Shown in pieces: positions 5,309 through 63,637 of a DNA stretch of 64,000 bases. Position 1 is the stretch's first letter. Each line of letters begins with the position of its first letter. Below the pieces are notes generated by a model. It saw nothing but the letters and a program-made list of their open reading frames with translations, made no database searches and was not told the origin of the DNA. Origin of the DNA: Lysobacterales bacterium (lineage in GTDB: Bacteria; Pseudomonadota; Gammaproteobacteria; Xanthomonadales; Rhodanobacteraceae); assembly GCA_016721015.1 (NCBI GenBank), contig JADKJL010000008.1:32472-96471 (forward strand), in the 5' to 3' direction. The position numbers and the translations under genes were made by a program.

Positions 5309-5412
5309 GCAAATATTTTCCTGGCTGACGCTGCGGCACCGGCAACGGTATCGCAGCACGGGCACGGACGGGCACGCGCCCGCTGCTGACGCTCCAAAAT
5401 GTCCCGCCGAGC

Positions 5413-11474: not shown

Positions 11475-11640
11475 GGACAGAACCTCCAGGAGGAATCGCG
11501 AGTGTCGCGTGGAGAACAGCCGCTTGCCACCACGCGTGCATTGCAATGTGATCGACTCGTCACATGCAAGTCACTCAGGCGGATCAGCGTTATGCCGCAA
11601 ACCGCCAAGTGAAATGTGAAACAAACATGAAGAATGAGGT

Positions 11641-35097: not shown

Positions 35098-35183
35098 GGG
35101 ATTTTTCCTGCGTAATCGTGAATGCGGTGTAGTCGCGTCCAGTGTCGGTGAAGTGGGCGTTGCAGACTGTGAACCGACGCTGC

Positions 35184-44341: not shown

Positions 44342-44458
44342 CGGGCTTACTCCGAAAACAGACGTTACTTGGCACAAGAGAACAGGAAAGAGTCGCCGAT
44401 CAGGCCATCAGCAGGGGCGCATCAACGTTCCAGACCTCGCCAGCGTTGGTCGAATCTC

Positions 44459-46282
44459 TCACGGATCAAATCCATCGACAAAGATCAGGTCGGCGCTGGA
44501 GACCACCTGGCGACATGCGGAGAACTCGGACACGATAATCCCCGGCAAGCCCGTGGCAATCGAAAATTGCCGCGTCAGCGCGGTGAGGAAAAAGCTCGCA
44601 CCGAGGCCGGAGGTTTGGCGGGAGAAGGCAGCATTGCCCGACGCATCCGTGGTCACGCTGGCCACCACCGGCCCTGGATTGAGTGGGAAGAAGCGACTGC
44701 CGCCGCCAAAGCCGCTCGCATCGCAGCTATTGCTTATATAGAAATGGACTTCATAACTGCTGCCCGGAGCCGCATCAAGCGAGCCGGCAATCGTCGTCGT
44801 CAACGTACCCGGATCGTAGATCGCCGATTGGATGAGCGGCTTGTTGAGCAGCTCATTGGGGCCGCTGTCGCCATCACCGGGATCATTCGGAGTGACTCCG
44901 GCCGGTGCGAGATCGATGGCCAGTCCGCCATTGCCGCCAATCGATGAGTTGCTGGCATCAACCTGGGCCGGGCCATCGATAAACAGACCTGCGCCGAGGT
45001 TGTTGGAAATACTCGCCGAGCCAAACGGCAACAGCCGGAAAGGCGCGCCGACAAACGCGCCGATGACATTGCCCGAAATCAGCACGCCATCACCGCCATT
45101 ACCCAAAGGCACCGCACCCACACCGATTCCGATTCCATTGGCCACCAGTGCGGTGCCCATGAAAGGACTGTCGAAGATGGCGACGCCGTCACCGACATTG
45201 CCCGAAATGAGATTGTCGTGGATGGCGATGCCCGTGCTGTTCATGTCGACCGTGATGCCGCGGCCCGCATTGGCAAGGGCGGCCGTGCCCTGTGCATTGA
45301 GGCCGATGATGTTATTGCGAATGTGATGGTCCTGGGAGCGCGCGTCGGCACGCGGTGAACCGATGTAGATCCCGTCTGCGCCGCCCGCCGAGATCACGTT
45401 GAGCGTTTGCGACAGCGGATTGATCGGGCCGCCCAACGAGGCAAGTTCGTCACCGACCAGATTGTTCGTGCTGCCTCGGCCAAACACCAGGGTCGGACGC
45501 AGCATTCCGAGGCCATTTCCGAGTGCAATGCTTCCGCTCACGTCGGTACCAAAAAAATTGCCCTGAATGCGCACGCCACCGACCGGGCAGAAGCTGTTGG
45601 TCGCGCAGAATTCCTCGCCCATCGAGATGGCGGCACCGGCGAACCGGTTGATGACGAGTCCACTGATGACGCTGAGACTGCCCGGACACAACGGCGAAGT
45701 CGGCAGGGACGCGCCGATCACAATGGCATCAGAAGCGCCGGCGAGACTGCCGTCCAGTTCGATCGCGAGAACGGCATTGCTACCCTGCGTCTGGGTATTC
45801 AGACTCGATCCGGGCTGCGTATAGCCATCCAGCGTGATCGGGATATTGAAGTGCGGCAGAGCCGACAGGGGCCGGATCGTGTGGGTTCCGCCGCCTGGAA
45901 TATTGAACACGATCGAGTGCGGCGCACAGTGGGTACCGCCGCTGTTCTGGATCGCGTTCGCATCGAGGATCGCCTGTCGCAGGCTGCCTGAACCCGAATC
46001 GGCATTGTTGATGACCGTGAAGGTATTGGCCTGCGCAAGGGTCGATGACAACGCGACGAATAACAGGGGGCCACAAATCCGTGCAGTCGCGGCGCAGCGC
46101 GCCAGGCGGATCAGAACCCGATTTCTTGCGGACGACGCTGACCACGCGTTGGTGCTCACTGGGTCAAACCCGGAATCCCGGGTTTTCAACGTAGGCCGCC
46201 CATGTCTTGAAACACACCGGTGAGATGGATCTGGTTGCTCGACCGAGCGCTTGGTGGGCATTGCCATTTTCTTGCTGGGCAT
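44459..46282 (-). CDS. Secreted right-handed beta-helix (PbH1) repeat protein; ends in the DLIFVDGFDP tail
   Basis: Hydrophobic signal-like segment ICGPLLFVALSSTLAQA, then TVINNADSGSGSLRQAILDAN and many NxxxGN/GxGI turns. The start codon is uncertain: Met 46282/46261, or GTG at 46159. Confidence 0.7.
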   Translation of the reverse strand: MPSKKMAMPTKRSVEQPDPSHRCVSRHGRPTLKTRDSGFDPVSTNAWSASSARNRVLIRLARCAATARICGPLLFVALSSTLAQANTFTVINNADSGSGSLRQAILDANAIQNSGGTHCAPHSIVFNIPGGGTHTIRPLSALPHFNIPITLDGYTQPGSSLNTQTQGSNAVLAIELDGSLAGASDAIVIGASLPTSPLCPGSLSVISGLVINRFAGAAISMGEEFCATNSFCPVGGVRIQGNFFGTDVSGSIALGNGLGMLRPTLVFGRGSTNNLVGDELASLGGPINPLSQTLNVISAGGADGIYIGSPRADARSQDHHIRNNIIGLNAQGTAALANAGRGITVDMNSTGIAIHDNLISGNVGDGVAIFDSPFMGTALVANGIGIGVGAVPLGNGGDGVLISGNVIGAFVGAPFRLLPFGSASISNNLGAGLFIDGPAQVDASNSSIGGNGGLAIDLAPAGVTPNDPGDGDSGPNELLNKPLIQSAIYDPGTLTTTIAGSLDAAPGSSYEVHFYISNSCDASGFGGGSRFFPLNPGPVVASVTTDASGNAAFSRQTSGLGASFFLTALTRQFSIATGLPGIIVSEFSACRQVVSSADLIFVDGFDP

Positions 46283-46448
46283 TTCGGCTGGAGATCCTCA
46301 GGCGCGCCATGAATTTGACACGCGCACCAGCCCAAACAGGAAAGCGCCGCGATTCCGGTCAGGTCCGTGCGTGTCGTTGAATCATGGCGGGACCACAGGC
46401 GAACCCAGCGACGGCATTGGCCCGGCAGGCTGTTGCCTGCCGGATGAC

Positions 46449-48389
46449 TCAGAAATCGTTTTCGATCAGATCCATGTTCACCGTATCGCCGGTGTAGCTG
46501 GCCGCGCTGGTTGGTGAGATCGAGAAATGGCCGCCGCCGTTGGCGGCGACGTCGGGCCACCAGAGCGGATCGCCGCCGGCGAACCAGGTGAATCCGCTGA
46601 ACACGCCGCTGCCGGCGTTGGCATTGAAATAGGCGATGAAATCGGCCCAGGCCTGCGGTGCATTTGCAGCACCGGCATACAAGCCGATTTCGCCGAGATA
46701 GATCCGATAACCGTGCGCGGTCGCTTCGTTGAGTGCCACCGAGATGTGGTCGCGCGCTGCCGTGACCGAGGTGATCTGGGTGGTACCTCCTCCTTCGTCG
46801 GCATCGAGATAGGTGTGCACCTCGGCCACGATCTTTCCAAGCGGATCGACGATGGGCTGGCCCACGCCATTGGCATTGAGCCACCCGTATGCGTTGGATC
46901 GCTTCGTGGCTGCGGTGTCGTAGAAAGTTGACGTCCATGAGCTCGCCGCGCTGTAGCCATTGCCGGGAACATAGATCGTCTGCGTCGCGCCCGTACTCCG
47001 GATCGCGGTAATCGCCGCTTGCGCCGAAGCGAACCATGACATCGTCGACATGTCATTGGGCTCATTGATCAACCCATATTCCACTTTCGGGTTCGCGGAA
47101 AAGATCGTTGCCATGCGCGACCAGAAGTCCGCAAACGCGGCGGTCGGTACCGAGCCGGAACCAACCACGTTTCCGCGATAGCGTGCACCGCCGGCGCCAC
47201 CCGCGCTGTTGGAATCCCAGGGCTCGACGATCACGCGCATGCCCTTGACGCTGGTGGCGTAGTCGACGATGCGCTTGTAGTTGTCGAAATAGGTTTTGTA
47301 GCGGCCGGTTTGCGCGGCGGGAATCGGCCCGTTCAGAACCTGCTGCATGCACTCCCAGGAGAACAGGAAGCGCAACGTGGTCATGTGCTTGGAGGCGAAA
47401 TAATCGACCAATCGTTCATCGTGGTGTGGATAGTTGGTTCCCTCGATCGGCCCGCCAGCCTGATCGCAATTCTGGTAGGCCATTTCCATGCCGACGAAGT
47501 TCGTGCCGCGGAAAGCCGCGCTCGCCTGATCCTCAAAACCATTACTGAAGATCGGATCGGGCTCACCGACAGGAGCGGAGGCGTCGATGAATTGCCAAAG
47601 CGCAGGCGCGGCCTGCGACCAGATCGCATGGCCCATGCCCGGGATCGCGCACCAATCGAGCTCGCGGGTGCAGCCGTCGTAGGAAACGCACGGCGATATC
47701 AGAGATGAGCTCGTACTTCCGTTGCATGCCTGTGTCGCCGCGTAGTTGTTGCGCACGTTTACGCCTTCCGCAAACGAGACGCCGCTCGTATTGTCGTTTT
47801 CGCCCCAGATAAACGCGGCCGCCGGCAAAGGACAGGAAACGCCGCCGATGCCGGTGTAGGTGAAGTCGGGAATCCCGCCGCCGTCGTTCACGGGATACAA
47901 GGTACCCGAGTGAATGCCGAGCCCGCGAATCACGGTGGGACCGAGTCGGCAACCGAGCGCATTGGTCATCGTCGCGCCGCCGCTGAAACCGACAACAAAC
48001 ACGCGCGAGGTATCGATACCGAATTCCGCATGCATCGCGGCGATTACCTCGGTGACAAACACGGCCTCACGACTGCGTCCGTCATAGGTGTAGTACTCGA
48101 AAGTTCCGCCCGGTGCATTCGGGTAGACAAATACCGCGCCGGTCGTCGCTTGTGCTTCGAGGGGAAGGGCGGCGCGCATGTTGGCACCGTTGCCGCCATC
48201 GCCATGCAGCGAGAAGACAAGCGGCAGCGCGGTTCCTGGAGGAATGCTCGCCGGGCGGGCCAGGACGTAGCTGCGCGGGATGCCGCTGGACACGATATTG
48301 CGAGTTTCAGAGACATAGGCTGCTTGGCTACAGCAGCTCCAGGTCATGCCGACAATCGCCAGAACCCACACTTTCACGAGACCTTGCAT
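46449..48389 (-). CDS. Secreted two-domain enzyme: PHB-depolymerase/CE1-like esterase fused to a GH5 glycoside hydrolase
   Basis: Signal peptide MQGLVKVWVLAIVGMTWSCCSQAA. Esterase blocks SLHGDGGNG and GFSGGA. GH5 blocks LINEPND (acid/base Glu) and YLGEIG (nucleophile Glu). An internal PIFSNGFE sits at the junction, and the terminal sequence is degenerate (DLIENDF). Confidence 0.8.
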   Translation of the reverse strand: MQGLVKVWVLAIVGMTWSCCSQAAYVSETRNIVSSGIPRSYVLARPASIPPGTALPLVFSLHGDGGNGANMRAALPLEAQATTGAVFVYPNAPGGTFEYYTYDGRSREAVFVTEVIAAMHAEFGIDTSRVFVVGFSGGATMTNALGCRLGPTVIRGLGIHSGTLYPVNDGGGIPDFTYTGIGGVSCPLPAAAFIWGENDNTSGVSFAEGVNVRNNYAATQACNGSTSSSLISPCVSYDGCTRELDWCAIPGMGHAIWSQAAPALWQFIDASAPVGEPDPIFSNGFEDQASAAFRGTNFVGMEMAYQNCDQAGGPIEGTNYPHHDERLVDYFASKHMTTLRFLFSWECMQQVLNGPIPAAQTGRYKTYFDNYKRIVDYATSVKGMRVIVEPWDSNSAGGAGGARYRGNVVGSGSVPTAAFADFWSRMATIFSANPKVEYGLINEPNDMSTMSWFASAQAAITAIRSTGATQTIYVPGNGYSAASSWTSTFYDTAATKRSNAYGWLNANGVGQPIVDPLGKIVAEVHTYLDADEGGGTTQITSVTAARDHISVALNEATAHGYRIYLGEIGLYAGAANAPQAWADFIAYFNANAGSGVFSGFTWFAGGDPLWWPDVAANGGGHFSISPTSAASYTGDTVNMDLIENDF

Positions 48390-48636
48390 CGCAATTACTC
48401 CCCTGGAACGTTGATGTGCTCTGAATTCGACGACTCGCGCATTGAAATTCGAGATAGTTGACGGGTGCATGAGGCAGTACGGGAAACGGCACTAAAACCG
48501 GACATGAGCGATTCTGCACGCTGCCGGCAATGACCGATCAGGCCGGGGCCGGATGTTCGAATGTCGCATCTCTGTCGAATGCTGACGTGCCAAAGTCGAG
48601 CAGGCTGAAGGCGTTCAGTCACTGGGCTGCACAGGC

Positions 48637-50088
48637 TCATGGGACGACTTCGAAACCATTCCTGAAAATGCGATCGGTGACGGGAGGCGTTGCTCCATAT
48701 TCATACGCGCCCACATCACAGTTCAGACCCTCTCCGCGCAGCCCACCACGCTCATCAAGGCTCAAGGAGACGAGAGTGTCGTCAACGCAGCCTTGTGTCG
48801 TGGTGGCATTGATCGCCGAGCTTCCGGCCAGCAGTGCGTGCGTCAGCGTCAGTCCGCCGTTGTCTTGCAACGGCCCGATCGAATCGATATCCACAAAACC
48901 CCGGGCTGGGATTCCATTGCCAGTGAATGAGCAGCCGGCAACGTCGTTGAAAAGATTCCGACCATAGACCTCCAACGTCCCGTTGCAATCGTTGTAGATG
49001 GGCGCATCGAGGATCGTGTTGCGCGCAATCAGGGAATTGACCGCAATAAAGCGCATTCCTGACGCCGTATTCACTCCCCCGCCTACGCCACCCAGTTCAT
49101 CACGGTCATGATCGGCGTCGTTATCGATGATGCTTGAATTGTAGCTATATACCTTCGAAAGATTGTTGACACCGCCGCCATCGGTATAGGCGAAATTGCC
49201 GCTCAACGTGCTGTTGACGAGAGTCACTTCGGGGATCTCTTGCGGATGGACCAAGGTGAAATAGACTTCGATCCCGCCGCCAAAGTTGGCGCCGTTGGAA
49301 CTGATCGTAGAGCTGTAAACGTGTGCATTGCCGTATCCGCTGACGAATACACCGCCGCCGGCGCCTTGGGCAAGATTGGCGCTGATGCTGGCATAGCCCA
49401 GAGTGGCGGGGCCGGCCAGATACAATCCGCCGCCGCTGTAGGCAGTCGTATTCGAGCGGATGGTCACGTGTTGAAGGGTGAGCATGCTGCCGAGGAGGCT
49501 TGCGATACCGCCGCCCGCCGAGGCGGAATAGTTGTTCTCGATGATGCAATCGTCAAGGCGCAGGAGTCCCTGGTTCTGAATGCCGCCGCCGGCTCCCATT
49601 CGGTCACTGTCGTTCCCATTGAGCACGGTCAATTTGCTCAAAAATACAATTCGACCTGCACTGACCGACAATGCACGATCGGTATGGTTTGCGTCGATGA
49701 CGGTGGTGGCTGAGCTGTCGCCATCGATATACAGATACGGCGAAGGAGAAACCGGTGTAGTGAGATTCAGATCTCCCGACGCCTCCCCATTGTCGAACGT
49801 CGGGGCAAGTGACAGAGTGAACCTGCCTGCTGGCACTTTGATATGCACGCTGCCATTCGTCGAAACACGATTGGCTTGCATGATCGCCGCGCGCAGCGAG
49901 CAGGTATTGGCGCTGGTATGGCAGATTCCGTCACTCGTGTTGTCGTCGATCTGGTCCATCGTGGTATTGACGGTAAACGTAACGGTAGCGTCCACGGCCC
50001 GTGCCCAAGTCGGCGCAAGTACAAGGAGCACAGGTGCCACCAACGCGAACCGTGCAACCATGCAGCGCAACACAGGAAGATGTTTCAT
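48637..50088 (-). CDS. Secreted CSLREA-motif / Pmp-like GGGI-repeat beta-helix protein (choice-of-anchor-Q-like); ends in DRIFRNGFEVVP
   Basis: Signal peptide MKHLPVLRCMVARFALVAPVLLVLAPTWARA. DGICHTSANTCSLRAAIMQAN. Repeated xGGG[IVL] turns. CDVGAYEYG lies near the end. RBS gagga. Confidence 0.75.
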   Translation of the reverse strand: MKHLPVLRCMVARFALVAPVLLVLAPTWARAVDATVTFTVNTTMDQIDDNTSDGICHTSANTCSLRAAIMQANRVSTNGSVHIKVPAGRFTLSLAPTFDNGEASGDLNLTTPVSPSPYLYIDGDSSATTVIDANHTDRALSVSAGRIVFLSKLTVLNGNDSDRMGAGGGIQNQGLLRLDDCIIENNYSASAGGGIASLLGSMLTLQHVTIRSNTTAYSGGGLYLAGPATLGYASISANLAQGAGGGVFVSGYGNAHVYSSTISSNGANFGGGIEVYFTLVHPQEIPEVTLVNSTLSGNFAYTDGGGVNNLSKVYSYNSSIIDNDADHDRDELGGVGGGVNTASGMRFIAVNSLIARNTILDAPIYNDCNGTLEVYGRNLFNDVAGCSFTGNGIPARGFVDIDSIGPLQDNGGLTLTHALLAGSSAINATTTQGCVDDTLVSLSLDERGGLRGEGLNCDVGAYEYGATPPVTDRIFRNGFEVVP

Positions 50089-50172
50089 CCGTTTTCCTCG
50101 AAGGCACAAACAGGCACGCAAAGCCAAGCCGAGGCGCACGCTGAAGGCATCACTTTCCAGCTTGTCCATGAC

Positions 50173-51486
50173 CTATTCAAATCCATTGCTGAAAATTCGA
50201 TCAGTCACCGCACCGTACTCGTATGCGCCGACATCGCATCTGACTCCGAACGGGCGAGATCCTCCACGTTGGTCGTCAGGCAACGGGGTAAGATTCTCAT
50301 CGACGCAGCCGAGATTGTCGTACGTGCTGTCGATCGCCTGACTACCCGGCAGGAGCGCGTGCGTCCAGGTTGAACCGCCATTGTCTTGCAATGGGCCGAT
50401 CGTGCTCGGCGTGATCAAGCCGTGGCTGGAAGCGCCATTGCCGCTGAAAGAGCAAAACGCGCCGTCATCCCCAAACAGGTTCCAGCCGTAGACTTCGAGG
50501 ATGCCTTGGCAATCGTTTTCGTTGACATAGCCGGTGGCGTAGTTGGCCGCGATCAGTGAATTGACGACCAGGGAACGCGAACCGGATTCGGCGTAGATCC
50601 CGCCGCCGCTCCCACCCGTCTGGTCGTGATCGTCGTCGGCGTCGTTGTCGACAATCGTCGAGTTGTAGATGAACGTGGCAATTCGGCTGTAGATTCCGCC
50701 GCCATTGTCATCAGCCGTATTTGCACTGACCGTGCTGTTGACGACAAACAGTTGATCACCGTCGTTGTAGATTCCACCGCCTTGGTAGGCATGATTGTCA
50801 CTTACCGTGCTCGCGAGAATCTCGACGCGATTGCCGATGCCGAACGTATCGATACCACCCCCTTCGTGGGCGTCGTTCGAGCGGATCGTGCTCGACTTGA
50901 CCAGCAGGGCACCCTGAAAGTTATCGATCCCACCACCATACGTGTGGGCGGTGTTGTTCTCAACGATGCTTCTGAACAGGGTCAGATCACCCTCATTTCG
51001 AATACCGCCGCCGCTAAACGGACTGTTGCCGCCGCGAATCGTGACGTGGGAAATTGTGGCTGGGCGTCCTTGCGCAATGGCGAAGACGCTGCCCACGTGA
51101 TTGGCGTCGATGATTGTGCTTGCCGCGGACTGGCCAAGGATGACGATCCGTTGACCGGCAATCAGCGCCGTCGTCAGATTGAGATCGCCCACTGCTTCAT
51201 CGTCAACAGCCCCGAATGGCACGGGGATAGACAGCACGTAGTTGCCTGCCGGCAGATTGATGATGGCGTACTCGGGATTGCTCCAGTGATTGGCTTGCGT
51301 GATTGCCGCGCGCAGTGAACAGGTGCCAGCGCTTGTGTGACATAGCCCATCATTGGTGTTGTCATCGGCCAGATCGAGAACGGTGTTGACGATGAACGTG
51401 ACATCGGCACGTGCAGAACCGGCACCGAGAACAACCAGCACGATCCATGCGGCAGCCATCCGTCTGAAAACGATCGGGGCGTTCAT
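50173..51486 (-). CDS. Paralogue of the preceding CSLREA/GGGI-repeat beta-helix protein; ends in DRIFSNGFE
   Basis: Signal peptide MNAPIVFRRMAAAWIVLVVLGAGSARA. DGLCHTSAGTCSLRAAITQAN, GGGI repeats and CDVGAYEYG. It lies 84 nt upstream of its paralogue. Confidence 0.75.
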   Translation of the reverse strand: MNAPIVFRRMAAAWIVLVVLGAGSARADVTFIVNTVLDLADDNTNDGLCHTSAGTCSLRAAITQANHWSNPEYAIINLPAGNYVLSIPVPFGAVDDEAVGDLNLTTALIAGQRIVILGQSAASTIIDANHVGSVFAIAQGRPATISHVTIRGGNSPFSGGGIRNEGDLTLFRSIVENNTAHTYGGGIDNFQGALLVKSSTIRSNDAHEGGGIDTFGIGNRVEILASTVSDNHAYQGGGIYNDGDQLFVVNSTVSANTADDNGGGIYSRIATFIYNSTIVDNDADDDHDQTGGSGGGIYAESGSRSLVVNSLIAANYATGYVNENDCQGILEVYGWNLFGDDGAFCSFSGNGASSHGLITPSTIGPLQDNGGSTWTHALLPGSQAIDSTYDNLGCVDENLTPLPDDQRGGSRPFGVRCDVGAYEYGAVTDRIFSNGFE

Positions 51487-51631
51487 GCAATTGATTCCAT
51501 GGCCAAGGTTTCGGTTCCAGATTGGAAGCGCTGGCTGCGCGCGAGCGGCAAGGCAGCCGTGGGCTCTTCGATCCAGTGACTTAACAGGAAGCGGCGCCTG
51601 ATCCGGCCATCGCCAGCGGTATGATGCGCAG

Positions 51632-52213
51632 ATGAGCAGTCCCGACAGCGATTTGCCAAGTGATCCGACTGCGGCCTGGGATGACCTCTCACCCGCGTCG
51701 GTGCGCAGTCTGGCTGACCAGTTGATGCCGCTGTTCCATGACGATCTTCGTCGACTGGCTCACCGTGAACGCAGCCGGGTCAGTGCTGGCGAAACGCTGC
51801 AGACGACCGCCCTGGTCAATGAGGCCTACCTCAAATTGCGCGGTTCGAACGGCTGGAACACGGACGAGCACTTCCTTCGCGCTGCCGCGCTCGCCATGCG
51901 TCACGCGCTGGTCAATCACGCCGTGGCTCGTCTGGCGAGCAAGCGTGGCGATGGCGCGACTCATGTTTCAATTACCTCCGCTCTTGATGTGGCGATCGAG
52001 GACGACGCATCCATCGTCGCCCTGAACGAAGCGCTCGGCAGACTCGCGCGGGATTCACTGCGCCTCGCCCAAGTTGTGGAATGTCGCTATTTTGCCGGCT
52101 ACGATGATGCCGAGACGGCACTTGCACTGGGAATCTCGGAACGAACAGTACGCCGCGACTGGATCCTCGCCCGTGCCTGGCTGCATCGTGAATTGGCGCA
52201 GTCGACGCCTTGA
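51632..52213 (+). CDS. ECF-type sigma factor (Sigma70_ECF / TIGR02999-like, the kinase-associated class)
   Basis: LMPLFHDDLRRLAHRERSRV..GETLQTTALVNEAYLKL and the C-terminal region-4 HTH ALGISERTVRRDWILARAWL. Confidence 0.85.
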   Translation: MSSPDSDLPSDPTAAWDDLSPASVRSLADQLMPLFHDDLRRLAHRERSRVSAGETLQTTALVNEAYLKLRGSNGWNTDEHFLRAAALAMRHALVNHAVARLASKRGDGATHVSITSALDVAIEDDASIVALNEALGRLARDSLRLAQVVECRYFAGYDDAETALALGISERTVRRDWILARAWLHRELAQSTP

Positions 52214-52321
52214 AGCGATCGCCGCAACGTCGGCATCTGCGCATCCATTCACTGACGGGAATTTAAGTCCATGACTTCGGCTCTGTGGATGCATGCGGTG
52301 GTGCAACGCGCCTGCACGTCG

Positions 52322-55004: not shown

Positions 55005-55229
55005 CGACCAGACCCTGTTCCCCCAGCAGAATGAATTGTGCGCCCGAATGGGCCACCGGCAAACTGGAAAGTGACAAAGGAAACCCGGCAAATCGGCTGG
55101 TCCGCCGATTGGCGAATCAGGGTTTCCAATGGAGCCTCCTCGGGAAAGCATTGCGAGAACATTCCATTTCCCGCAGCAGTTGCTTTGCGGGGGGATTACC
55201 GATGCCTGGGAGCTCGTGTACTCTGAGTA

Positions 55230-55838
55230 TTGAACCGGTTCCGGATTTCCCGTCCTTTGACGAAGGCAACTTCGAGCGATACGCAAGTGTCCGTATCCGG
55301 CCTATCCGGATCGGCTGCCGCATCTGACGAGCAGGTCGATCATTTGTTCGCCGCGGTTTACGCCGAGTTGCGCCAATCCGCGCATCGAATGCGTCGCCTG
55401 CAACGCGGCGACACGCTCAACACCACATTGTTGGTGCATGAGCTGTATCTGCGCTTCAAGAAGAGTGACAGCGCGCGATTCGAATCGACCCCGCAGTTTT
55501 TCGCCTATGCCGCGCGTGCCCTTCGATCCATCATGGTCGATCATGCGCGCAGCAGGATCGCCGAACGCGAACGCATCTCCGATATGACCATGCTTGCCAT
55601 TCTGGATGCAGAAACACCGGCGCTGTCGCCGAACCAGGCTCTGGCCTTGAACGATGCCCTGCAGCAACTCGAACAGGACGACGCGCGTGCGGCAAAAGTG
55701 GTGGAGCTGCACTTTTTTGCCGGACTGAGTTTGCCCGAGGTGGCCAGGCATCTCGAGCTCACCACGCGTACGATTGATCGTGACTGGCGCTATGCCCGTG
55801 CGTTTCTGCAAAGCGTGTTGGGAGACAGCTCGCACTGA
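55230..55838 (+). CDS. ECF-type sigma factor (same class as 51632..52213)
   Basis: DHLFAAVYAELRQSAHRMRRLQRGDTLNTTLLVHELYLRF and the region-4 HTH HLELTTRTIDRDWRYARAFL. The start is uncertain, since the N-terminal 30 aa look non-canonical. Confidence 0.8.
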   Translation: MNRFRISRPLTKATSSDTQVSVSGLSGSAAASDEQVDHLFAAVYAELRQSAHRMRRLQRGDTLNTTLLVHELYLRFKKSDSARFESTPQFFAYAARALRSIMVDHARSRIAERERISDMTMLAILDAETPALSPNQALALNDALQQLEQDDARAAKVVELHFFAGLSLPEVARHLELTTRTIDRDWRYARAFLQSVLGDSSH

Positions 55839-55951
55839 CCGTTCAGTCGGGCTGGCCGCTCCATGTCGTGTTTTTCCGCTACGGGCCGTTGGTTGCATTG
55901 AATTCCACCTGCGCGATTGCGCAACGACAACGATCTTTCAGGCATTGATGG

Positions 55952-58687
55952 ATGACCGCAAACACCCCGGGCTCGAAAGTACGCGAACTGTTTGATGGCG
56001 CGCTTGAGATCGATGCAGCAGATCGTGCCGCATGGTTGATCAGGCAAACGGATGATTCAGTGCTACGTGCGCGAGTGCAGGCCCTGCTGGATGCCGAGCG
56101 CACCCCGAGCCATTTGCTTGATCAACCGTTTGCGGAAAAACTGTCCGGCATCCTGTCGACACCTGCCCACGATTTGTCCACTCATGCGATAACCGCAAGT
56201 TCCATGATCGGACAGCGCATCGGTGCCTACGTCATCACACGGTTGATTGGTCAGGGCGGCATGGCGAGCGTGTTCGAGGCCCAGCGCAGTGACGGCAGCT
56301 ACAGTCAATCGGTCGCCATAAAACTGCTGCGTCGAACCTTGCATACTGAATTGGAGCTGCGATTGTTCCAGCGCGAGCAACAGGCGCTGGCAGCGCTCGA
56401 ACATCCGAATATCGCCAGACTACTCGACGGTGGAATCACTGATTCGGGTGCGCCTTACCTGGTCATGGAACGAGTACACGGCACGGATCTGTTGCGTTTC
56501 GTGCAGGGCAGGAATCTGCCGTTGCGGGAACGCTTGAGCCTGTTTGTCCAGATCTGTGATGCGGTAAACGCCGCCCATCGCGCCTTGATCGTGCACCGGG
56601 ACATCAAACCCGCCAATATCCTTGTTACCGATGAGGGCGTGGTCAAGCTGCTGGATTTCGGTATCGCCAAGATCCTGAATGAGGATGCCGCCGCTGCGCC
56701 GACGACCTACGCGCCGATGACGCCCGAGTATGCAGCGCCCGAGCAGTTCGATGGCCGCACCATTACTACCGCAACCGATGTGTATGGATTGGGCGTCGTG
56801 CTGCATGAAGCGCTCACCGGCTCCCGGCCCAAGCGCGGCGATACCCGCCGTGCCTCGGATGCAATCACCGCACATGCCACTCAAATGCCGCCCACTACGG
56901 CAAGAAACACCGGTGAGCTCAAGCGCTTCCTGCGCGGCGATATCGACAATGTCCTGCGCCAGGCACTGGCCATCGAACCCAACCTGCGCTACTCCTCCGC
57001 TGGCGATCTGGCCGCCGATCTGCGCCGATTTCTCGACGGCCAACCTGTCCAGGCGCATCCGCCGAGCGGTTGGTATCGGACCCGAAAGTTTGTCGGCAGA
57101 AACCGCCTGGCTGTTGCCCTCTGTGGTGCCTTGCTTCTGGGCCTGCTCGCCAGCTTGAGCGTTGCGCTGCAGCAGGCACGGGAAGCCATGCGTCAGACTG
57201 CCGTTGCGCTCAGCGCGGAAGCTGATAGCAGGGCTGAGCTGGCCCACGCGACCAGCTTGCGCGATTTTCTGGAAGCCCTGTTTGAGCCGGTACGCGTCGG
57301 CATCGCAGAGGGAAAAGCCCCGACAGTCAGGGAACTGGTTGTTGCGGGTGAAACGCAGCTTCGTGAAAACACGAGATTGGCTGCGCCGGCGCGCGTTGAA
57401 ATGTTGTCGTTCTTCGCGTTTCTGCACGAGAGTATCGGCGAGCTTCCCAGCGCCAGACGATTGGCGACAGAATCCGTCGAGTTGGCAGAGAGAACCCTGA
57501 CGAAGGAAGATCCACGTTACTCGGCAGCGCTCGCGATGCGCGGTTTCACTGCCGTGCGCATGGAAGACTACCTGGCGGCCGAAGCTGATCTGCGTATCGC
57601 CTTGCCATTGATGAAAAAAACAGGACAGCGCGGCTGGGCGCTCGCCAATGCGATGCAGGCAATGAGTTCGATTGAAAACATCAATGGACACCCAGAGAAA
57701 TCATTGGAGTATGCCAAGGGCGATCTTGCTGAACGCATTTTCGCCTTCGGCGCCAGCGACCGCCGAGTCGGCGTTGGCTACAACAACATCGCCGATGCAC
57801 TTGAGGCGATGGGGCAATATCGGCAGTCCATCGTCGCGTACGAATCCGCGTACGAAATCCAGTCGGCACGACTCGGTCCGGACAGTGCGGAAACTACCCT
57901 CGCGCTGGCTGGTCTGGCATCCAGTTATTGGCGAGCCGGTCAGTGGCGGCATGCGCGCCGCTTGTTCCAACAAGCCTCGGAACGCTTCGACCGAGTCGGT
58001 GGAAAAGCACAGATCGTTCAAATATATGCAGTCGTCAAGCTTTGCATGCTTGAGCATTGGCTGGCGCATGCTGCCGAAGCCGAGCAGGCATGCGCCAAGG
58101 CACGTACGCTGACGGCGGCATCGCTGGGTCGCAACAGCGCGTCCTGGGGCGATATTGAAAGCGCGGAATTCGAGGGGGATCTTGAGCTTGGCGATTTGCC
58201 CAAGGCCCATGCCGCTTACCTGCTTGCCAACGCGTTGTATCCGCCCACTGTTGCGAATCGACTTCGTCGTGGGCGATTGCAATCGTCCTATGCCGAATGG
58301 CTGATGCGCCAGGGTCGCTGGGATGAGGCCAGGAAACTCTTGCCTGAAGCGATCAGCGATATCCAGGCGCGACCACACAAGATTCCCCTGTTGCTGGCCC
58401 AGGCGCGACTGCTATTCGCCTGCCAAAAATCGGCGGGACCCGAGTGTTCGACGGGTTTGCGCGATGCTTATGAAGAAACCTTGGCTGCAGTTGCCGATCT
58501 CGATCATCCGCAAACACTCATTGCGGAAACCCTGATCGCGCAAATCGACCTGCCCATCGATAGCGCGAAAGCAAAGGCGCGGTTGCGCACGGTGATCGCC
58601 AGCGTCGAATCGGAGCTTGGGGCGATGCATCCGCGCATGCTGGCTGCCCGCGAAGTGTTGGCAAGTTCTCCTGGACAAGCCGAGTAG
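55952..58687 (+). CDS. Ser/Thr protein kinase with TM segment and TPR-like C-terminal domain
   Basis: RELFDGALEIDAADRAAWL leader. GQGGMASVFEA, AIKLL, HRDIKPANILV, DFGIAK and APE. TM segment LAVALCGALLLGLLASLSVAL. A long helical-repeat C-terminus. It lies 113 nt downstream of its ECF sigma gene. Confidence 0.85.
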   Translation: MTANTPGSKVRELFDGALEIDAADRAAWLIRQTDDSVLRARVQALLDAERTPSHLLDQPFAEKLSGILSTPAHDLSTHAITASSMIGQRIGAYVITRLIGQGGMASVFEAQRSDGSYSQSVAIKLLRRTLHTELELRLFQREQQALAALEHPNIARLLDGGITDSGAPYLVMERVHGTDLLRFVQGRNLPLRERLSLFVQICDAVNAAHRALIVHRDIKPANILVTDEGVVKLLDFGIAKILNEDAAAAPTTYAPMTPEYAAPEQFDGRTITTATDVYGLGVVLHEALTGSRPKRGDTRRASDAITAHATQMPPTTARNTGELKRFLRGDIDNVLRQALAIEPNLRYSSAGDLAADLRRFLDGQPVQAHPPSGWYRTRKFVGRNRLAVALCGALLLGLLASLSVALQQAREAMRQTAVALSAEADSRAELAHATSLRDFLEALFEPVRVGIAEGKAPTVRELVVAGETQLRENTRLAAPARVEMLSFFAFLHESIGELPSARRLATESVELAERTLTKEDPRYSAALAMRGFTAVRMEDYLAAEADLRIALPLMKKTGQRGWALANAMQAMSSIENINGHPEKSLEYAKGDLAERIFAFGASDRRVGVGYNNIADALEAMGQYRQSIVAYESAYEIQSARLGPDSAETTLALAGLASSYWRAGQWRHARRLFQQASERFDRVGGKAQIVQIYAVVKLCMLEHWLAHAAEAEQACAKARTLTAASLGRNSASWGDIESAEFEGDLELGDLPKAHAAYLLANALYPPTVANRLRRGRLQSSYAEWLMRQGRWDEARKLLPEAISDIQARPHKIPLLLAQARLLFACQKSAGPECSTGLRDAYEETLAAVADLDHPQTLIAETLIAQIDLPIDSAKAKARLRTVIASVESELGAMHPRMLAAREVLASSPGQAE

Positions 58688-58805
58688 CGCGAAGTCCGCT
58701 GAATGCCGGCGCATCCTCGCGCCTGCTCTTTCCAACAACGATGTCGTGTTTTCGCCCGCGGCTCCGTTTGTTCACGCACCAGCCCTGAACAGCGAGTGTG
58801 TGCTC

Positions 58806-61124
58806 ATGCGTATTGTTTGCGTTTTTTTTCTCCTGATCTGCCACAGCCAGGCCATGGCCGCGATTTTCACGGTGGGCGGCGCGGTCAACTGCACCCACAA
58901 CACGATTCAAGGCGCGGTCAATGCTGCAGCAGTCAATCCAGGGGCAGATACACTGCGCATTGCCAACGCCGGCACCTACTTTGCCGAAGCGGTGACCATT
59001 GGCGCGCAGGATTTAGTCATCGACGGTGGATATGCCAACTGTGCCGACACCACACCCAGTGGTGGCAGCGCCGTGATCAGTGGCCAAGGCGGCGCTGCGG
59101 CCTCGGTGTTCTCGATCACCGGCGCGGGCAACCGGCGTTTTGAAAACCTCGGCATCACCCGCGGCGATGCACCGACCACAGGGCGCGGTGGTGGCATTCG
59201 CTTTGAAGGCAGCGGCTTATTGACGTTGCGCAACGTGACGGTTGCCATTAACCAGGCCGGCGCTGGCGGTGGCATCTATTTTCGCGGCGACGGCAATCTC
59301 GCCGAGTTGTTTTTGGATCTCGATACCTTCGTGATCCTCAACACGGCCACCGCGGTTGCTGGATTTGGCGGCGGCATCGCGGTAGTCAACACCGCACGTC
59401 TGCTGATGCTGCAAGACCGTACGCAAATTTCGAGCAACAGCGCGATTGGTGTAGACAGTGTTGGCGGTGGATTGGCGGTGTTTGGTGATGCCACGGCGGA
59501 CATCGGATCGCCGGGCTCAGGCGTAAATGGGGCGATCTACGACAATGAAGCGGGTTCCGGTGGTGGCATTGCGGTGGTGAACGACGCATCAGGTGGACCG
59601 TTCACGTCGGCGCGCCTGTTCACCACCGACGCTAACCGTCCGGTGCGTGTGCATGGCAACCGCGCCCGCCGCGTCGGAGGCGCCATTTTGGTCCGACCGT
59701 TTTACAACGAGATTAACGTTTACAACGCCGACGCCTGCGTTGAAAATGGTCGCATCGACAACAACACCGCCCAAGAAGGCGCTGCAATCTATGTTGATAC
59801 CGATGAGTCACTGTCGCAGCGAAACCTGGGCGGCACATTTAAGTTCAATGCGGGTTGCAGCGGCCTGGCTTTACCCGGCAGCATTCCTTGTAACCCCGGC
59901 GCCCCCTGCAACCGCATCGAAAACAACACCGCGCGAGATATCGTTAATAACGTCAACACGCCCGGCGCCGTGTTACTCGCGCAGATCAACGCCAATGTCA
60001 TCCTCAATAGGGTGGCGTTCAACAACAATACGGCGCGCTACGTCATTCGCTCCGTCGAAGCGCAGGCGCTGACGCTCAACAAATGTCTGGTCGCACAAAA
60101 CCAAGTCGCGAGCCATCTGATTTTTGCGGAAGCCGGTTCTGAGAACGTCGCCGTCACCAATTGCACGATCACCAATAACACCATGCCCACCGGTACAGCG
60201 GCGCGAATCGTGCTGCGCAATGGCAGCGGCCCGTTGGTGCTGAAATACAACCTGTTGTGGCAGCCGGGCAATCTTGCCTTGGCCTACGGTGGCAATGTCA
60301 GCACCTTGAATCCCGATATCGAATACAACATCACCAACTCGGTGACCAGTTTGCCGCCCAGTCCATGGAATCAATTTGCGCTTCCCCGTTTTGCTGATCC
60401 GGCGCGCGGCGATTTTCGTCAGCGGATCAGTTCACCCACGCTCGATGTGTTCCCGCCATTGGCCAACGTCGGCAATGACTACGACGGCCGTGCCTACGAT
60501 CAGGACCTGCGGCTGTGCCCCGTGGCCGGCACCCAGGTTATTCGCGATGCTGGCGCTTTCGAGCGGCAACGAAGTGACCCGTGGTTGGTCAACGGCGACT
60601 TTAATGGCGATCTCAATTTGTGGGCCGGCAACAACCCCGGCTTGACCAGCTACAGCACGTCCAACGCGGTGGGCAGCAGCGGCGGATCACTGGCGTTTAA
60701 TCGGGACGAATCGATTGGCAACACCACCCCGCGCTATAACGCCGGCGTGCAGTGTTTCAACGTGCCGGCACCCGCCGTCTATCGCCTCAGCGCGCACGGT
60801 CGCGCCGCAGGCAATATCTTGCTGAGTCGCGACCGACCGGTTATTCGTTGGCGGCTGCGTAACAACTCGGAAAATTGCGCCCAAGCCGACCCGATTGCCA
60901 CCGAGGGCGATCTATTCCTGCCGAACAATGCCGCATTTGCAGCGCCGCTTGCGCCAGCAGAAATCAACGTCACCGCGGCACAGTGGACGGCAAATACCAC
61001 CATCGAAGTGCGCCTCGACGTTGAGCCGGATTTTCTCGACCGACCGATTGATGCCGGATTCGACAAAGTCGAAATCAGCAGCCCGTGCAGCAATGATTTG
61101 ATCTTTGCCAATGGCTTTCAGTAG
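58806..61124 (+). CDS. Secreted GGGI-repeat beta-helix protein with C-terminal CBM-like jelly-roll; ends in DLIFANGFQ
   Basis: Signal peptide MRIVCVFFLLICHSQAMA, so the ORF-track start 58617 overlaps the kinase gene and is unlikely. AIFTVGGAVNCTH, repeated GGGI[RYA]F turns, DAGAFERQ, then WLVNGDFNGDLNLW. Confidence 0.8.
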   Translation: MRIVCVFFLLICHSQAMAAIFTVGGAVNCTHNTIQGAVNAAAVNPGADTLRIANAGTYFAEAVTIGAQDLVIDGGYANCADTTPSGGSAVISGQGGAAASVFSITGAGNRRFENLGITRGDAPTTGRGGGIRFEGSGLLTLRNVTVAINQAGAGGGIYFRGDGNLAELFLDLDTFVILNTATAVAGFGGGIAVVNTARLLMLQDRTQISSNSAIGVDSVGGGLAVFGDATADIGSPGSGVNGAIYDNEAGSGGGIAVVNDASGGPFTSARLFTTDANRPVRVHGNRARRVGGAILVRPFYNEINVYNADACVENGRIDNNTAQEGAAIYVDTDESLSQRNLGGTFKFNAGCSGLALPGSIPCNPGAPCNRIENNTARDIVNNVNTPGAVLLAQINANVILNRVAFNNNTARYVIRSVEAQALTLNKCLVAQNQVASHLIFAEAGSENVAVTNCTITNNTMPTGTAARIVLRNGSGPLVLKYNLLWQPGNLALAYGGNVSTLNPDIEYNITNSVTSLPPSPWNQFALPRFADPARGDFRQRISSPTLDVFPPLANVGNDYDGRAYDQDLRLCPVAGTQVIRDAGAFERQRSDPWLVNGDFNGDLNLWAGNNPGLTSYSTSNAVGSSGGSLAFNRDESIGNTTPRYNAGVQCFNVPAPAVYRLSAHGRAAGNILLSRDRPVIRWRLRNNSENCAQADPIATEGDLFLPNNAAFAAPLAPAEINVTAAQWTANTTIEVRLDVEPDFLDRPIDAGFDKVEISSPCSNDLIFANGFQ

Positions 61125-61291
61125 AGCGGTTCACAGCTGGCCGGGCGGGATGCCAGACCAAGCCTGCTTGTGCTGGCTATCCACTTTTTCTCGACTTTTT
61201 CTTACAACGCTCAAGGCTTGCAAAACAAATGTCGTGATTGTTCGCGCGGCTCCGTTAGTGAAGGAGCCAACCCCGAGCAGCGAACCCATCC

Positions 61292-63637
61292 ATGAATCGT
61301 TTCTGCCTTCTGTTTACGTGCGCCTGCCTTGCTTCGAGCAGCGCCAGCGCCGCAATCTTCACCGTCGGCTCGGCCGTCGGCTGCACGCACAGCTCTATTC
61401 AAGCAGCGCTCAACGCGGCTTCGGCAAACGCTGAAGCCGACAGCATTCGCATCTCCAACCAGCTCAGCTACACCGCACAGGCCATCACCATCGGCGGCGG
61501 CGATATCACTTTGGTAGGCGGCTACAGCGACTGTAGTACCACGACGCCGACAGGTTCGACCACGATCAGTGGCCTCGGCGGGGCGACGGACTCGGTCATC
61601 AAGATAACTAGTGACGGAGTCCGCTACTTCAAGCGCTTGTTGATTACGCGTGGCGACGCGATCGGGGCTGGTGGCCGCGGTGGCGGCATACGCTTTGACG
61701 GCACCGGCGATCTGATTCTGGAAGATGTCAGCGTCGATCAAAACGCAGCCCTGAGTGGTGGCGGCATCTATTTTCGCAGCACCGGCGGCGCAGCTACCCT
61801 GCTGATCAACAGCAACAGTGCGATTTCGCGCAATACCGCAATCGAAGCAGACGGCCATGGCGGCGGCATCACAATCACCGGTAACGCGCGGTTGATCATG
61901 GCTGCGAACAACACCTCGATCTACAGCAACACCACAACCGGCGCCAATTCTCGCGGCGGTGGTGTGGCGATTTTTGGCCCGGCGCGTGCCGATATTGGCT
62001 CGCCGGGACTGGGGCCCTTTGGCGCCGTTTTCGATAACGAAGCCGAATTTGGTGGTGGTATCGCTATCTATGCGAGCACTGGATCGCCTCAGGATAATGC
62101 CTATGCCAGGGTCTTTTCGACCGACCCCGATCGCCCGGTTCGCATTCACGGCAATCGCGCGCGCAGTTTGGGCGGTGCTGTTTTCGCGCGCTCGGAGAGC
62201 TTTGGCGGGGAGACGCTAGCGGGGCTGTGTTTGCTAGATGCTCGCGTTGACGGCAATACAGCGCCCGAAGGTGCGGCGTTCTACTCAGACTCCACCACCA
62301 ATGCACTCGGGCTGTATCCCTCCAGCAGCCGCTTGTCCATCAACGCAGGTGACGCATCGGCGTGCAGTGCCCCAGAACAAGCAGCCACGTTGGGCGCGCT
62401 GCGCTGTACGCCGAATGTGGCGGGTTGCAACGTGATCGAAAACAACCGCGCCATCAATATCGGCAGCGGCACGCCAACCACTGGCGCGATCATTTTGGGC
62501 CAGACCTCGTCGGAATCGATCATTCGCCGGGTGAGTTTTCTCAACAATAGCGGTGGCAGCGTGATTGACCTGCGCGAGGCACGCCATTTCGAGCTCGGCT
62601 TGAGCCTGCTGGCAGGCAACACCCTCTCGAGCAACTTGCTGAAGGCCAACGCCGGCACGGAATCGTTCCGCGTGTTGAACGCAACCATCAGCAATAACAC
62701 CATTGGCGATGCACGCGTTATCTCGCGCGCTGGCAGCGGCTTGATCGAAATTAAAAACAACCTGATCAACCAGCCCGGGAAATTCACCCTGAGCTATGGC
62801 GGCAACGTCGGCAGCGCCAGCGCCGATATCGCCTACAACGTCAGCACCGACATCAGTACGCTGCCGCCGAATTCATTCAACGTCACCGGCCCGATTCGCC
62901 TGACCGATCCTGCACGCGGAGACTACCGCCAGCGCATTGCCTCGCGTGGCGTGGACACGTTGCCGACCATCGCGGGCAATGATCTGGATCTGGATGGCCG
63001 CCCGTTCGATGTGCTGAATCCGATCTATGCCGCGACGGTCGCCGCCGCGAATAGCCGCGATGCCGGCGCTTTCGAGCGACAGGTGAGCGATCCCTGGTTG
63101 GTCAATGGCGAATTTGATGGGGATTTGAACCTGTGGACCAGCTCAACGCCGACCCTGACCAGCTACAGCACCCTGAATGGCCCTGGCAGCAGCGGTGGGT
63201 CGGTGGCATTCAGTCGAGCCGCAACCACGGGTGATCCAAGCCCGCTCGCCTTCAACGTGCTGCGTCAATGCTTCAACGTGCCTGCCGCCGGGGTCTATCG
63301 CCTGAGCGCTCAGGGCCGCGCCCCCGGATCGGTCCTGGTCAGCCACGACAAGCCTTTCGTGCAATTGTTCGTACGCTACAACTCGGCCAACTGCACGGGC
63401 GGCATCGATCAGATTGCGAGCGAATACCTGCCCAACCAGGCGAGCTTCGCAACGATGCCCAATCCACTTGAGGTATCGATTACGCCGGCCCAATTCACTG
63501 ATGGCACGACGCTGGAAGTGCTATTGAACGTGGAACAGGATATTTCCGGAACCGCCATCAATGCGGGCTTCGATAGAATCCAGTTGACCGATGGCAGCCT
63601 GTTCGATTTGATTTTCGCGAATGGATTCGAGAATTGA
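61292..63637 (+). CDS. Paralogue of 58806..61124: secreted GGGI-repeat beta-helix plus CBM-like domain; ends in DLIFANGFEN
   Basis: Signal peptide MNRFCLLFTCACLASSSASA. It is colinear with its neighbour (AIFTVGSAVGCTH, GGGIRFDG, GGGIYFRS, HGNRARSLGGAVF, DAGAFERQVSDPWLVNGEFDGDLNLW). Confidence 0.8.
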   Translation: MNRFCLLFTCACLASSSASAAIFTVGSAVGCTHSSIQAALNAASANAEADSIRISNQLSYTAQAITIGGGDITLVGGYSDCSTTTPTGSTTISGLGGATDSVIKITSDGVRYFKRLLITRGDAIGAGGRGGGIRFDGTGDLILEDVSVDQNAALSGGGIYFRSTGGAATLLINSNSAISRNTAIEADGHGGGITITGNARLIMAANNTSIYSNTTTGANSRGGGVAIFGPARADIGSPGLGPFGAVFDNEAEFGGGIAIYASTGSPQDNAYARVFSTDPDRPVRIHGNRARSLGGAVFARSESFGGETLAGLCLLDARVDGNTAPEGAAFYSDSTTNALGLYPSSSRLSINAGDASACSAPEQAATLGALRCTPNVAGCNVIENNRAINIGSGTPTTGAIILGQTSSESIIRRVSFLNNSGGSVIDLREARHFELGLSLLAGNTLSSNLLKANAGTESFRVLNATISNNTIGDARVISRAGSGLIEIKNNLINQPGKFTLSYGGNVGSASADIAYNVSTDISTLPPNSFNVTGPIRLTDPARGDYRQRIASRGVDTLPTIAGNDLDLDGRPFDVLNPIYAATVAAANSRDAGAFERQVSDPWLVNGEFDGDLNLWTSSTPTLTSYSTLNGPGSSGGSVAFSRAATTGDPSPLAFNVLRQCFNVPAAGVYRLSAQGRAPGSVLVSHDKPFVQLFVRYNSANCTGGIDQIASEYLPNQASFATMPNPLEVSITPAQFTDGTTLEVLLNVEQDISGTAINAGFDRIQLTDGSLFDLIFANGFEN

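Follow-up and report, generated by a model that had tools for sequence, protein, structure and literature searches.

Two adjoining ECF43 sigma factor and Hanks kinase cassettes, each probably wired to its own set of exported glycan-directed proteins, in a Lysobacterales genome

Introduction

Extracytoplasmic function (ECF) sigma factors of the ECF43 class are defined by the loss of the acidic motif of region 2.2 and by a conserved threonine in that region, with QTTA as the consensus (PMC13147305, PMC8999054). Such sigma factors are activated when an adjacent Hanks kinase phosphorylates the region 2.2 threonine, as in EcfP/PknT and EcfK/PknS (PMC8999054, PMC13147305). In EcfP/PknT of Vibrio parahaemolyticus, the founding example of the class (Iyer et al. 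2020, as summarised in PMC8999054), the sigma factor has STTA as its region 2.2 motif, is intrinsically inactive for want of DAED and is phosphorylated by the adjacent kinase on the second threonine of xTTx; its regulon confers polymyxin resistance. The regulon of EcfK in Xanthomonas citri is a type VI secretion system deployed against amoeba predation (PMC13147305). The output is known for only a few pairs of ECF43 sigma factor and Ser/Thr kinase, being polymyxin resistance in the Vibrio pair and type VI secretion in that of Xanthomonas; hundreds more are predicted in Xanthomonadales. The subject of the present analysis is a locus with two such pairs, flanked by genes for exported proteins, within a 64,000-nucleotide stretch of a Lysobacterales bacterium (contig JADKJL010000008.1, positions 32,472 to 96,471; hereafter the window).

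The locus probably comprises two independent cassettes, in each of which an ECF43 sigma factor and a Hanks kinase control a separate small set of Sec-exported, glycan-directed proteins. The kind of regulator is known; the type of regulon and the predicted promoters are new, and a C-terminal motif carried by most of the exported proteins was not found described. In this reading the locus adds a third kind of ECF43 output, in which small regulons encode beta-helix and glycan-active proteins for secretion, and yields testable predictions in the form of two cassette-specific promoter consensus sequences, phospho-acceptor threonines and feedback on a kinase gene.

EcfK/PknS is a close counterpart, from the same bacterial order, with a T-T pair in place of the acidic DxxD of region 2.2 and no anti-sigma factor (PMC13147305). 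PknS likewise combines an N-terminal extension of ~80-90 amino acids (aa), a Hanks domain, one transmembrane helix and periplasmic tetratricopeptide repeats (TPR), a likeness that is one of motifs and architecture (PMC13147305). The outputs differ: the type VI secretion system of the EcfK regulon has its place taken here by beta-helix, CSLREA and esterase genes (PMC13147305). Also unlike EcfK/PknS, two cassettes stand side by side, the kinase and sigma genes of one of them are convergent, and its kinase gene is frameshifted. Compared with EcfP/PknT, the sensor domain of PknT is different, and nothing at this locus suggests an antibiotic response of the kind that EcfP controls (PMC8999054).

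The regulators

The window was analysed by six-frame listing of open reading frames (ORFs) together with Pfam and NCBIfam scans, which recovered all ten genes of a preliminary description of this locus in the same order and on the same strands. An exact-sequence look-up identified the source as a metagenome-assembled bin with locus tags IPP82_098xx, a series that we take to stem from a long-read activated-sludge study. Module 1 comprises kinase-1, sigma-1, two CSLREA proteins, an esterase-GH5 protein, a PbH1-type protein and a 238-aa membrane protein; module 2 comprises sigma-2, kinase-2 and the beta-helix/CBM genes (GH5, glycoside hydrolase family 5; CBM, carbohydrate-binding module).

Both sigma factors can be assigned to ECF43 from their Pfam and NCBIfam matches and their region 2.2 motifs. 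Sigma-1 (51632..52213, plus strand; MBL0163913.1) scores 124 bits with PF07638 and 171.5 bits with TIGR02999, and sigma-2 (55287..55838, plus strand, from GTG 55287 as deposited, with TTG 55230 as an alternative start) scores 115 and 151.5 bits, all above the cut-offs. In region 2.2, sigma-1 has QTTA at residues 57-60, within ...TLQTTALVNEAY..., and sigma-2 has NTTL, within ...TLNTTLLVHELY...; in both, the acidic DAED/DxxD motif is replaced by uncharged residues. Thr59 of sigma-1 is the predicted phospho-acceptor, and the T-T pair is retained in 8/8 orthologues of module 2. The gene inventory of 43.6-63.6 kb holds no anti-sigma gene near either sigma gene and a Ser/Thr kinase gene adjacent to each, so that the earlier assignment of both to an ECF43 type free of a classical anti-sigma factor is borne out.

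The two kinases share an N-terminal extension of ~80-90 aa, a catalytic domain, a single hydrophobic segment and a periplasmic TPR domain of ~500 residues. Kinase-1 (52322..55004, minus strand, as delimited by reading-frame alignment) carries the catalytic motifs AALK108, HRDLKPDN200 and DFG220, and kinase-2 (55952..58687, plus strand; MBL0163917.1) carries VAIK121, HRDIKPAN215, DFG235 and APE262. In kinase-2 the Pfam kinase domain begins at residue 93; in kinase-1 it begins at residue 175 of a 795-aa ORF that opens with TTG, which corresponds to ~residue 81 from the corrected start, ATG 55004 (the ORF had earlier been given as 52899-55286). Hydrophobic segments at residues 377-399 of kinase-1 and 384-409 of kinase-2, and matches to TPR_12 (5e-20 and 6.5e-19, respectively), confirm the one transmembrane helix and the TPR domain first ascribed to each. 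A profile scan of the genome contigs with the TPR domain of kinase-2 found no relatives. Given the ECF43 signatures, the PknS-like kinases and the want of an anti-sigma gene, the two pairs belong to a known and experimentally characterised kind.

The reading frame of kinase-2 is intact. A 1-base frameshift near 52940-52950 interrupts that of kinase-1, whose last ~200 residues are encoded in ORF 52322-53041. Residues 1-695 of kinase-1 followed by residues 35-238 of that ORF align end to end with the orthologue at the related locus L008 (loci from relatives are numbered in this manner), an intact protein of 892 aa; measured against it, kinase-1 is not an intact reading frame, through either a genuine frameshift or a sequencing or assembly error. 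Accession numbering, from which alone this is drawn, suggests that kinase-1 was deposited as two pieces in both copies of the locus within the assembly.

By family precedent, each single-pass kinase would sense a periplasmic cue through its TPR domain and phosphorylate the conserved threonine of the Q/N-T-T motif in region 2.2. The phosphate would supply the negative charge that the sigma factor needs to bind RNA polymerase, and the activated sigma factor would then transcribe from a cassette-specific promoter.

Upstream of the sigma-1 gene, TATGAT is conserved 6 nucleotides (nt) before the ATG (51620-51631) and likewise upstream of position 4041 in L008, as is the N-terminus MSSPDS in the window and L008. 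This conservation suggests a sigma-70-type promoter and a leaderless sigma-1 mRNA.

Conservation in relatives

Homologues of beta-helix B occur only in bins of the Xanthomonadales/Lysobacterales type, for example Tahibacter, Dokdonella and Rudaea, and a profile scan with a 14-sequence beta-helix alignment returned 4 true relatives. The synteny of module 2 was judged on eleven independent loci, the window included. The order of a PF07638 sigma gene, a kinase-TPR gene (~900 aa) and a beta-helix/CBM gene recurs in L001, L002, L004, L005, L015, L016 and L027; in L017 the beta-helix gene comes before sigma and kinase. Together with the window, the linkage is therefore found at nine of the eleven loci, with protein identities from 74% to 33% and with differing flanking genes. 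Module 1 keeps its full order in L008 at 72-83% identity: the kinase gene is convergent with the sigma gene, the sigma gene is divergent from the CSLREA genes, and these are followed by the esterase-GH5, PbH1 and membrane-protein genes. A related array lies beside a divergent PF07638 sigma gene in L026. The preliminary description had let its reading depend on whether this adjacency is kept in relatives; it is kept, at most loci for module 2 and throughout for module 1 in L008.

The two modules are also found apart. L008 holds module 1 without module 2, with a cytochrome c gene upstream of the kinase gene instead, and L001, L002 and L016 hold module 2 alone. A 180-aa ORF upstream of the L008 kinase gene, considered as a third sigma candidate, was rejected as it is this cytochrome c. 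Since the modules separate in other genomes and carry different promoter-like motifs, they are two separable cassettes, independent of each other and adjoining by happenstance in this genome only.

Regulators of another type stand at two of the related loci. These single-pass, ToxR-like proteins, encoded divergently from homologous exoprotein genes (L012 4774-7506, minus strand; L007 7674-9875, minus strand), combine a Trans_reg_C domain and a transmembrane helix with a periplasmic TPR solenoid or a Tricorn/PD40 beta-propeller, and are seemingly a different type of regulator in the same role. A sensor module swapped between the L012 regulator and the kinases was considered and dropped, as BLAST gave a marginal match of their TPR regions only (E = 0.004). 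RbtA-like and PMP-like genes are thus repeatedly paired with single-pass periplasmic sensors, be they kinases or ToxR-like proteins, which argues that their products are made only on demand; such expression offers an experimental handle on what these exoproteins do.

Promoter-like motifs

Each module has its own bipartite motif upstream of its target genes. The sigma-2-type motif, ATGTCGTG-N12-GCTCCGTT, was found by comparing kinase-to-beta-helix intergenic regions. As TGTCGTG-N15-CCGTT it precedes kinase-2 (55864..55890; TGTCGTGTTTTTCCGCTACGGGCCGTT), beta-helix A (58742..58768) and beta-helix B (61230..61256), all on the plus strand and 31-61 nt upstream of the start codons. A repeat finder arrived independently at these three copies, as family D8, and shuffled window sequence would be expected to give ~1 loose match against the 3 seen. 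Across six loci there are 14 sites, every one on the coding strand and 13-61 nt before a start codon, 5 before kinase genes and 9 before beta-helix genes; in five loci the motif precedes the kinase gene of the same cassette. No such motif lies upstream of sigma-2. The site before kinase-2 would thus create positive feedback in module 2, feeding the kinase gene and not the sigma gene.

The sigma-1-type motif, GRCCGGAT-N10-TTCCTGTT, precedes CSLREA-2 (51583..51608; GGCCGGATCAGGCGCCGCTTCCTGTT), PbH1 (46335..46360; GACCGGAATCGCGGCGCTTTCCTGTT) and, with 1 mismatch, the membrane-protein gene (44381..44406; GGCCTGATCGGCGACTCTTTCCTGTT, conserved in L008), all on the minus strand. It also stands before the orthologous genes of L008 and L009. 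The window, L008 and L009 served to define the strict pattern; L026 was held out and fetched afterwards. L026 gave 3 strict matches, each upstream of a gene of the CSLREA array beside the divergent PF07638 sigma gene; the chance expectation is ~0.02 per 377 kb. The site before CSLREA-2 probably drives an operon with CSLREA-1 and perhaps also esterase-GH5.

A pair of half-sites with fixed spacing and a (C/T)GTT element downstream would fit the geometry established for ECF promoters. The dedicated, signal-responsive exoprotein regulon proposed at the outset thus gains support from both synteny and module-specific promoter-like motifs before the exoprotein genes. A consensus scan of 44-64 kb for sigma-70 promoters and terminators did no better than shuffled sequence.

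Several distant module-2 loci share GGAGTTTCC...CGTTG before the beta-helix gene (L004 9950-10000, L005 6720-6750 and the start of the L017 upstream region), which may be a promoter motif of a diverged sigma-2 lineage.

The exported proteins

All six exoproteins bear Sec-type signal peptides and, taken together, most likely bind or degrade extracellular polysaccharide, a glycan-directed role being the best supported. On the minus strand, the PbH1-type right-handed beta-helix protein (44459..46282) gives a weak Beta_helix match below the cut-off (9e-05) and has an orthologue of 77% identity in L008. Next to it lies a bifunctional exoenzyme (46449..48470, minus strand) with a PHB-esterase-like domain (PHB, polyhydroxybutyrate) that resembles feruloyl esterases at the N-terminus, and a GH5 domain (Cellulase, 4.9e-33) that resembles endoglucanases such as Cel5A. 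Module 1 ends with the multi-pass membrane protein of 238 aa (43625..44341, minus strand), which has no Pfam or NCBIfam match and lay outside the locus as first delimited; in L008 its orthologue, of 75% identity, immediately follows that of PbH1, which extends the module to 43625-44341.

The two CSLREA / choice-of-anchor-Q beta-helix proteins, CSLREA-1 (48637..50169, minus strand) and CSLREA-2 (50173..51486, minus strand), are 49% identical and display CSLREA_Nterm, choice_anch_Q and PMP repeats, the latter with 34 bits for PF02415 in CSLREA-2. NF041518 gives the pair 63 and 70 bits (cut-off 25), and TIGR04214 gives 27 bits for CSLREA-1 and 22.9 for CSLREA-2, just under the cut-off of 25. The AlphaFold2 model of CSLREA-2 (predicted local distance difference test, pLDDT, 88.5) finds its best Protein Data Bank (PDB) match in RbtA at a TM-score of 0.60, followed by the pectate lyase Pel9A at 0.50; searching the PDB by sequence with CSLREA-2, PbH1 and sigma-2 returned nothing. 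RbtA (TIGR04212, TIGR04214, NF041518; PDB 9cdv) shares with CSLREA-1 and CSLREA-2 the CSLR(A/E)A cap, the GGxGxx repeats and the choice-of-anchor Q domain, a likeness that for CSLREA-2 is at the level of the fold only and to a protein that is itself poorly understood. Unlike RbtA, the pair has no GlyGly-CTERM and no C-terminal transmembrane helix, with TIGR04212 scoring 19.9 bits where the cut-off is 295, and ends in a DxIFxNGFE tail instead. The Pmp-like label first given to these proteins does not extend to chlamydial Pmp proteins proper: by Pfam, none of the proteins has an autotransporter domain.

Beta-helix/CBM proteins A (58806..61124, plus strand, starting at ATG 58806 and not at 58617) and B (61292..63637, plus strand) are paralogues of 48% identity with no family match. 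The AlphaFold2 model of B (pLDDT 90.4) shows a long right-handed beta-helix, a beta-sandwich and a disordered tail at residues 770-781. In structure comparison the beta-sandwich matches CBM4, CBM16, CBM11 and CBM22, and the helix matches phage capsule-depolymerase tailspikes, LnbX and RbtA, with low TM-scores; K2 capsule tailspikes and PL6 enzymes are among the low-scoring fold matches of the beta-helix proteins. The choice between polysaccharide lyase and adhesin, left undecided in the preliminary description, is narrowed little by comparison with these folds: the resemblance is of low TM-score, as with Pel9A, and enzyme and lectin or adhesin fit alike.

The C-terminal tail

A short motif, D-x-I-F-x-N-G-F-E, marks the C-terminus of most of these proteins, with a consensus among homologues of D-x-[ILV]-F-x-[ND]-G-F-[ED] that is usually the end of the protein. 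The strict pattern [ILVMF]F..GF[EDQ], applied to the six-frame ORFs of the window, gave 10 matches, a distribution far from chance: all lie in real genes, and all but one (9/10) are no more than 3 residues away from a stop codon. The canonical tail closes five of the six exoproteins, as ...DLIFVDGFDP in PbH1, ...DRIFRNGFEVVP in CSLREA-1, ...DRIFSNGFE in CSLREA-2, ...DLIFANGFQ in A and ...DLIFANGFEN in B. The sixth, at first counted as tagged with the others, ends in a degenerate DLIENDF; its canonical motif is internal (DPIFSNGFEDQ at ~residue 310), exactly where the esterase domain meets the GH5 domain, and is conserved in L008 (~residue 350, DPIFSNGFE/D). The internal motif has the look of a fusion scar, left where a tagged esterase gene was joined to a GH5 gene downstream of it.

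The tail is far better conserved than the sequence before it. Among the 222 homologues collected for beta-helix B and CSLREA-2, 186 have it within their last 16 residues, even at ~30% identity; it is followed by 0 to 5 residues and is predicted to be disordered in both AlphaFold2 models. Some 16 CSLREA / choice-of-anchor-Q homologues carry ...(R)YLYLPL[IV]xR at the same C-terminal place instead (P0150, P0160, P0163, P0171, P0172, P0183, P0190-P0195, P0201, P0206, P0218 and P0219); a different tail in the same slot fits the idea of a choice of anchor. No library model in the NCBIfam scan matches the tail, and a string-based literature search found no description of it.

Outside the locus but within the window, the tail (DxIFxNGF[DE]) ends a glucose/sorbosone-dehydrogenase-like protein dependent on pyrroloquinoline quinone (PQQ; 10164-11546, minus strand), an M14 carboxypeptidase with a MAM-like domain (31164-33623, minus strand) and a reprolysin-type M12 peptidase (33715-35517, minus strand). 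Neither promoter motif precedes these three genes. Elsewhere, related loci have it on an S8 peptidase and a DUF5122 propeller protein. Because unrelated enzymes in the same window carry it, the tail does not mark an island, the role in which it had first been cast; it is a C-terminal motif of the whole lineage and neither a feature of the locus nor a part of its regulatory logic.

The breadth of tagged proteins, from beta-helix proteins, M14, M12 and S8 peptidases to PQQ dehydrogenase and beta-propellers, permits the tentative and rather doubtful suggestion that the tail is a new sorting, retention or secretion signal of a diverse Lysobacterales/Xanthomonadales exoproteome. Like PEP-CTERM, GlyGly-CTERM, LPXTG and the C-terminal domain of the type IX secretion system, it forms the very end of Sec-exported proteins that belong to many unrelated families, in a slot that other choice-of-anchor members fill with a different tail. 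Unlike them, it is 8-9 residues long, with no transmembrane helix, basic cluster or folded domain, occurs also internally at a domain junction, and has no identified processing enzyme or machinery. Were it a sorting signal, it would join the few C-terminal sorting tags known from bacteria.

Weighing the alternatives

Several observations weigh against the favoured reading of two cassettes, each controlling its own set of glycan-directed proteins. In L007 the beta-helix gene adjoins the Trans_reg_C/beta-propeller regulator in place of a sigma/kinase pair, and the short contig of L014 holds no regulator. Among arrays related to module 1, the CSLREA/PbH1 array of L009 lies beside a kinase-1-like kinase gene with no sigma gene seen next to it, that of L012 lies beside the ToxR-like Trans_reg_C protein with its transmembrane helix and TPRs, and that of L025 has no regulator nearby. 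With regulators absent or ToxR-like at some loci, the link between exoprotein and regulator is frequent and not obligatory. The putative promoters are assigned from conservation and position only, and the distant module-2 loci L004, L005, L017 and L027 are without the TGTCGTG motif. The frameshift in kinase-1 may leave module 1 impaired or under a different regulation. Finally, the beta-helix cores have almost no invariant charged residues, for which reason binding proteins, whether lectins or adhesins, fit as well as enzymes.

ECF sigma factors normally autoregulate, and a sigma-2 gene devoid of the motif is unusual in this respect. The bipartite motifs might accordingly be operators of another regulator, or promoters of a different sigma factor, with the sigma/kinase pairs controlling genes elsewhere; L014 keeps the motif with no sigma/kinase pair on its 10-kb contig. 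We nonetheless regard this as unlikely, in view of the fixed spacing of the half-sites and a CGTT-type element that by general knowledge fits ECF geometry, the correct orientation and distance of every site relative to a start codon, and the presence of the motif before the kinase gene of the same cassette in five loci. The type of motif moreover changes together with the type of sigma factor from module 1 to module 2. A yet more speculative scheme has the kinase TPR domains reading the DxIFxNGFE tails in a loop that senses export stress or cargo, by analogy with DegS, which senses the C-termini of outer-membrane proteins. Binding of C-terminal peptides is a classical property of TPR domains, all the target exoproteins of the two cassettes bear the tail in intact or degenerate form, and structure prediction leaves it disordered and exposed. 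The support is purely circumstantial, however, and the idea is highly improbable: the tail occurs on many proteins outside the regulons, whose genes are without a promoter motif, homologous tagged exoprotein genes elsewhere adjoin regulators with a beta-propeller sensor, and the variable number of residues after the motif (0 to 5) makes a free-carboxylate clamp unlikely.

The remaining alternatives concern the integrity and origin of the locus. Module 1 may be decaying, in which case kinase-1 would be a true pseudogene, sigma-1, intrinsically inactive when unphosphorylated, could not be switched on, and the exoprotein genes to the left would be silent or cross-activated by kinase-2. The 1-base frameshift does remove the last ~200 TPR residues, and the accession numbering, for what numbering can tell, suggests a two-piece kinase-1 in both copies. 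Decay is possible, if somewhat unlikely. Single-base indel errors are common in long-read metagenome data, and the assembly is a metagenome bin in which such an error in kinase-1 may have arisen; a truncated kinase-1 would retain its kinase domain, transmembrane helix and ~300 periplasmic residues; and the frame downstream is unbroken, with 71% identity to the orthologue, which argues against decay of long standing.

That the whole locus is one horizontally acquired accessory island, moving and functioning as a unit with exoprotein genes on either side of a duplicated regulator pair, was the view of the preliminary description and now appears improbable. In its favour, the G+C content at third codon positions (GC3) is 0.65-0.73 in locus genes against 0.75-0.82 in the core genes glnA, amtB and nupC, and the cassettes occupy differing genomic contexts among relatives. 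A second copy of the locus, on a 1.15-Mb contig of the same assembly (MBL0162063, MBL0162066, MBL0162067, MBL0162068), also appears to differ in the number of beta-helix genes: sigma-1 is 97%, kinase-2 94% and the beta-helix protein 98% identical, and by accession numbering a single beta-helix gene apparently follows the kinase, with an A-like signal peptide on the body of B. This suggests that the tandem pair recently gained or lost a gene or recombined, or else that the bin is heterogeneous in strains. Yet G+C is flat across the window, other exoprotein genes in the window have an equally low GC3, and no tRNA, Rfam match, integrase or flanking direct repeats were found there (the window ends short of the right border). 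The separation of modules 1 and 2 elsewhere, each with its own motif, speaks for two cassettes and not for one island.

Other features of the window

Immediately to the left of the locus lie glnA and amtB. Further left, two ORFs on the minus strand (506-2206, 566 aa; 2429-5365, 978 aa) have no Pfam or NCBIfam match and Arg-rich, implausible N- and C-termini, and are probably not real genes. The ORF of the reprolysin-type peptidase (33715-35517, minus strand) has an odd, Arg-rich N-terminal third, a GC3 of 0.58 over 33715-35300 and an overlap with an M20 amidohydrolase gene (35184-36494); its true start probably lies much further downstream, or else the gene is frameshifted.

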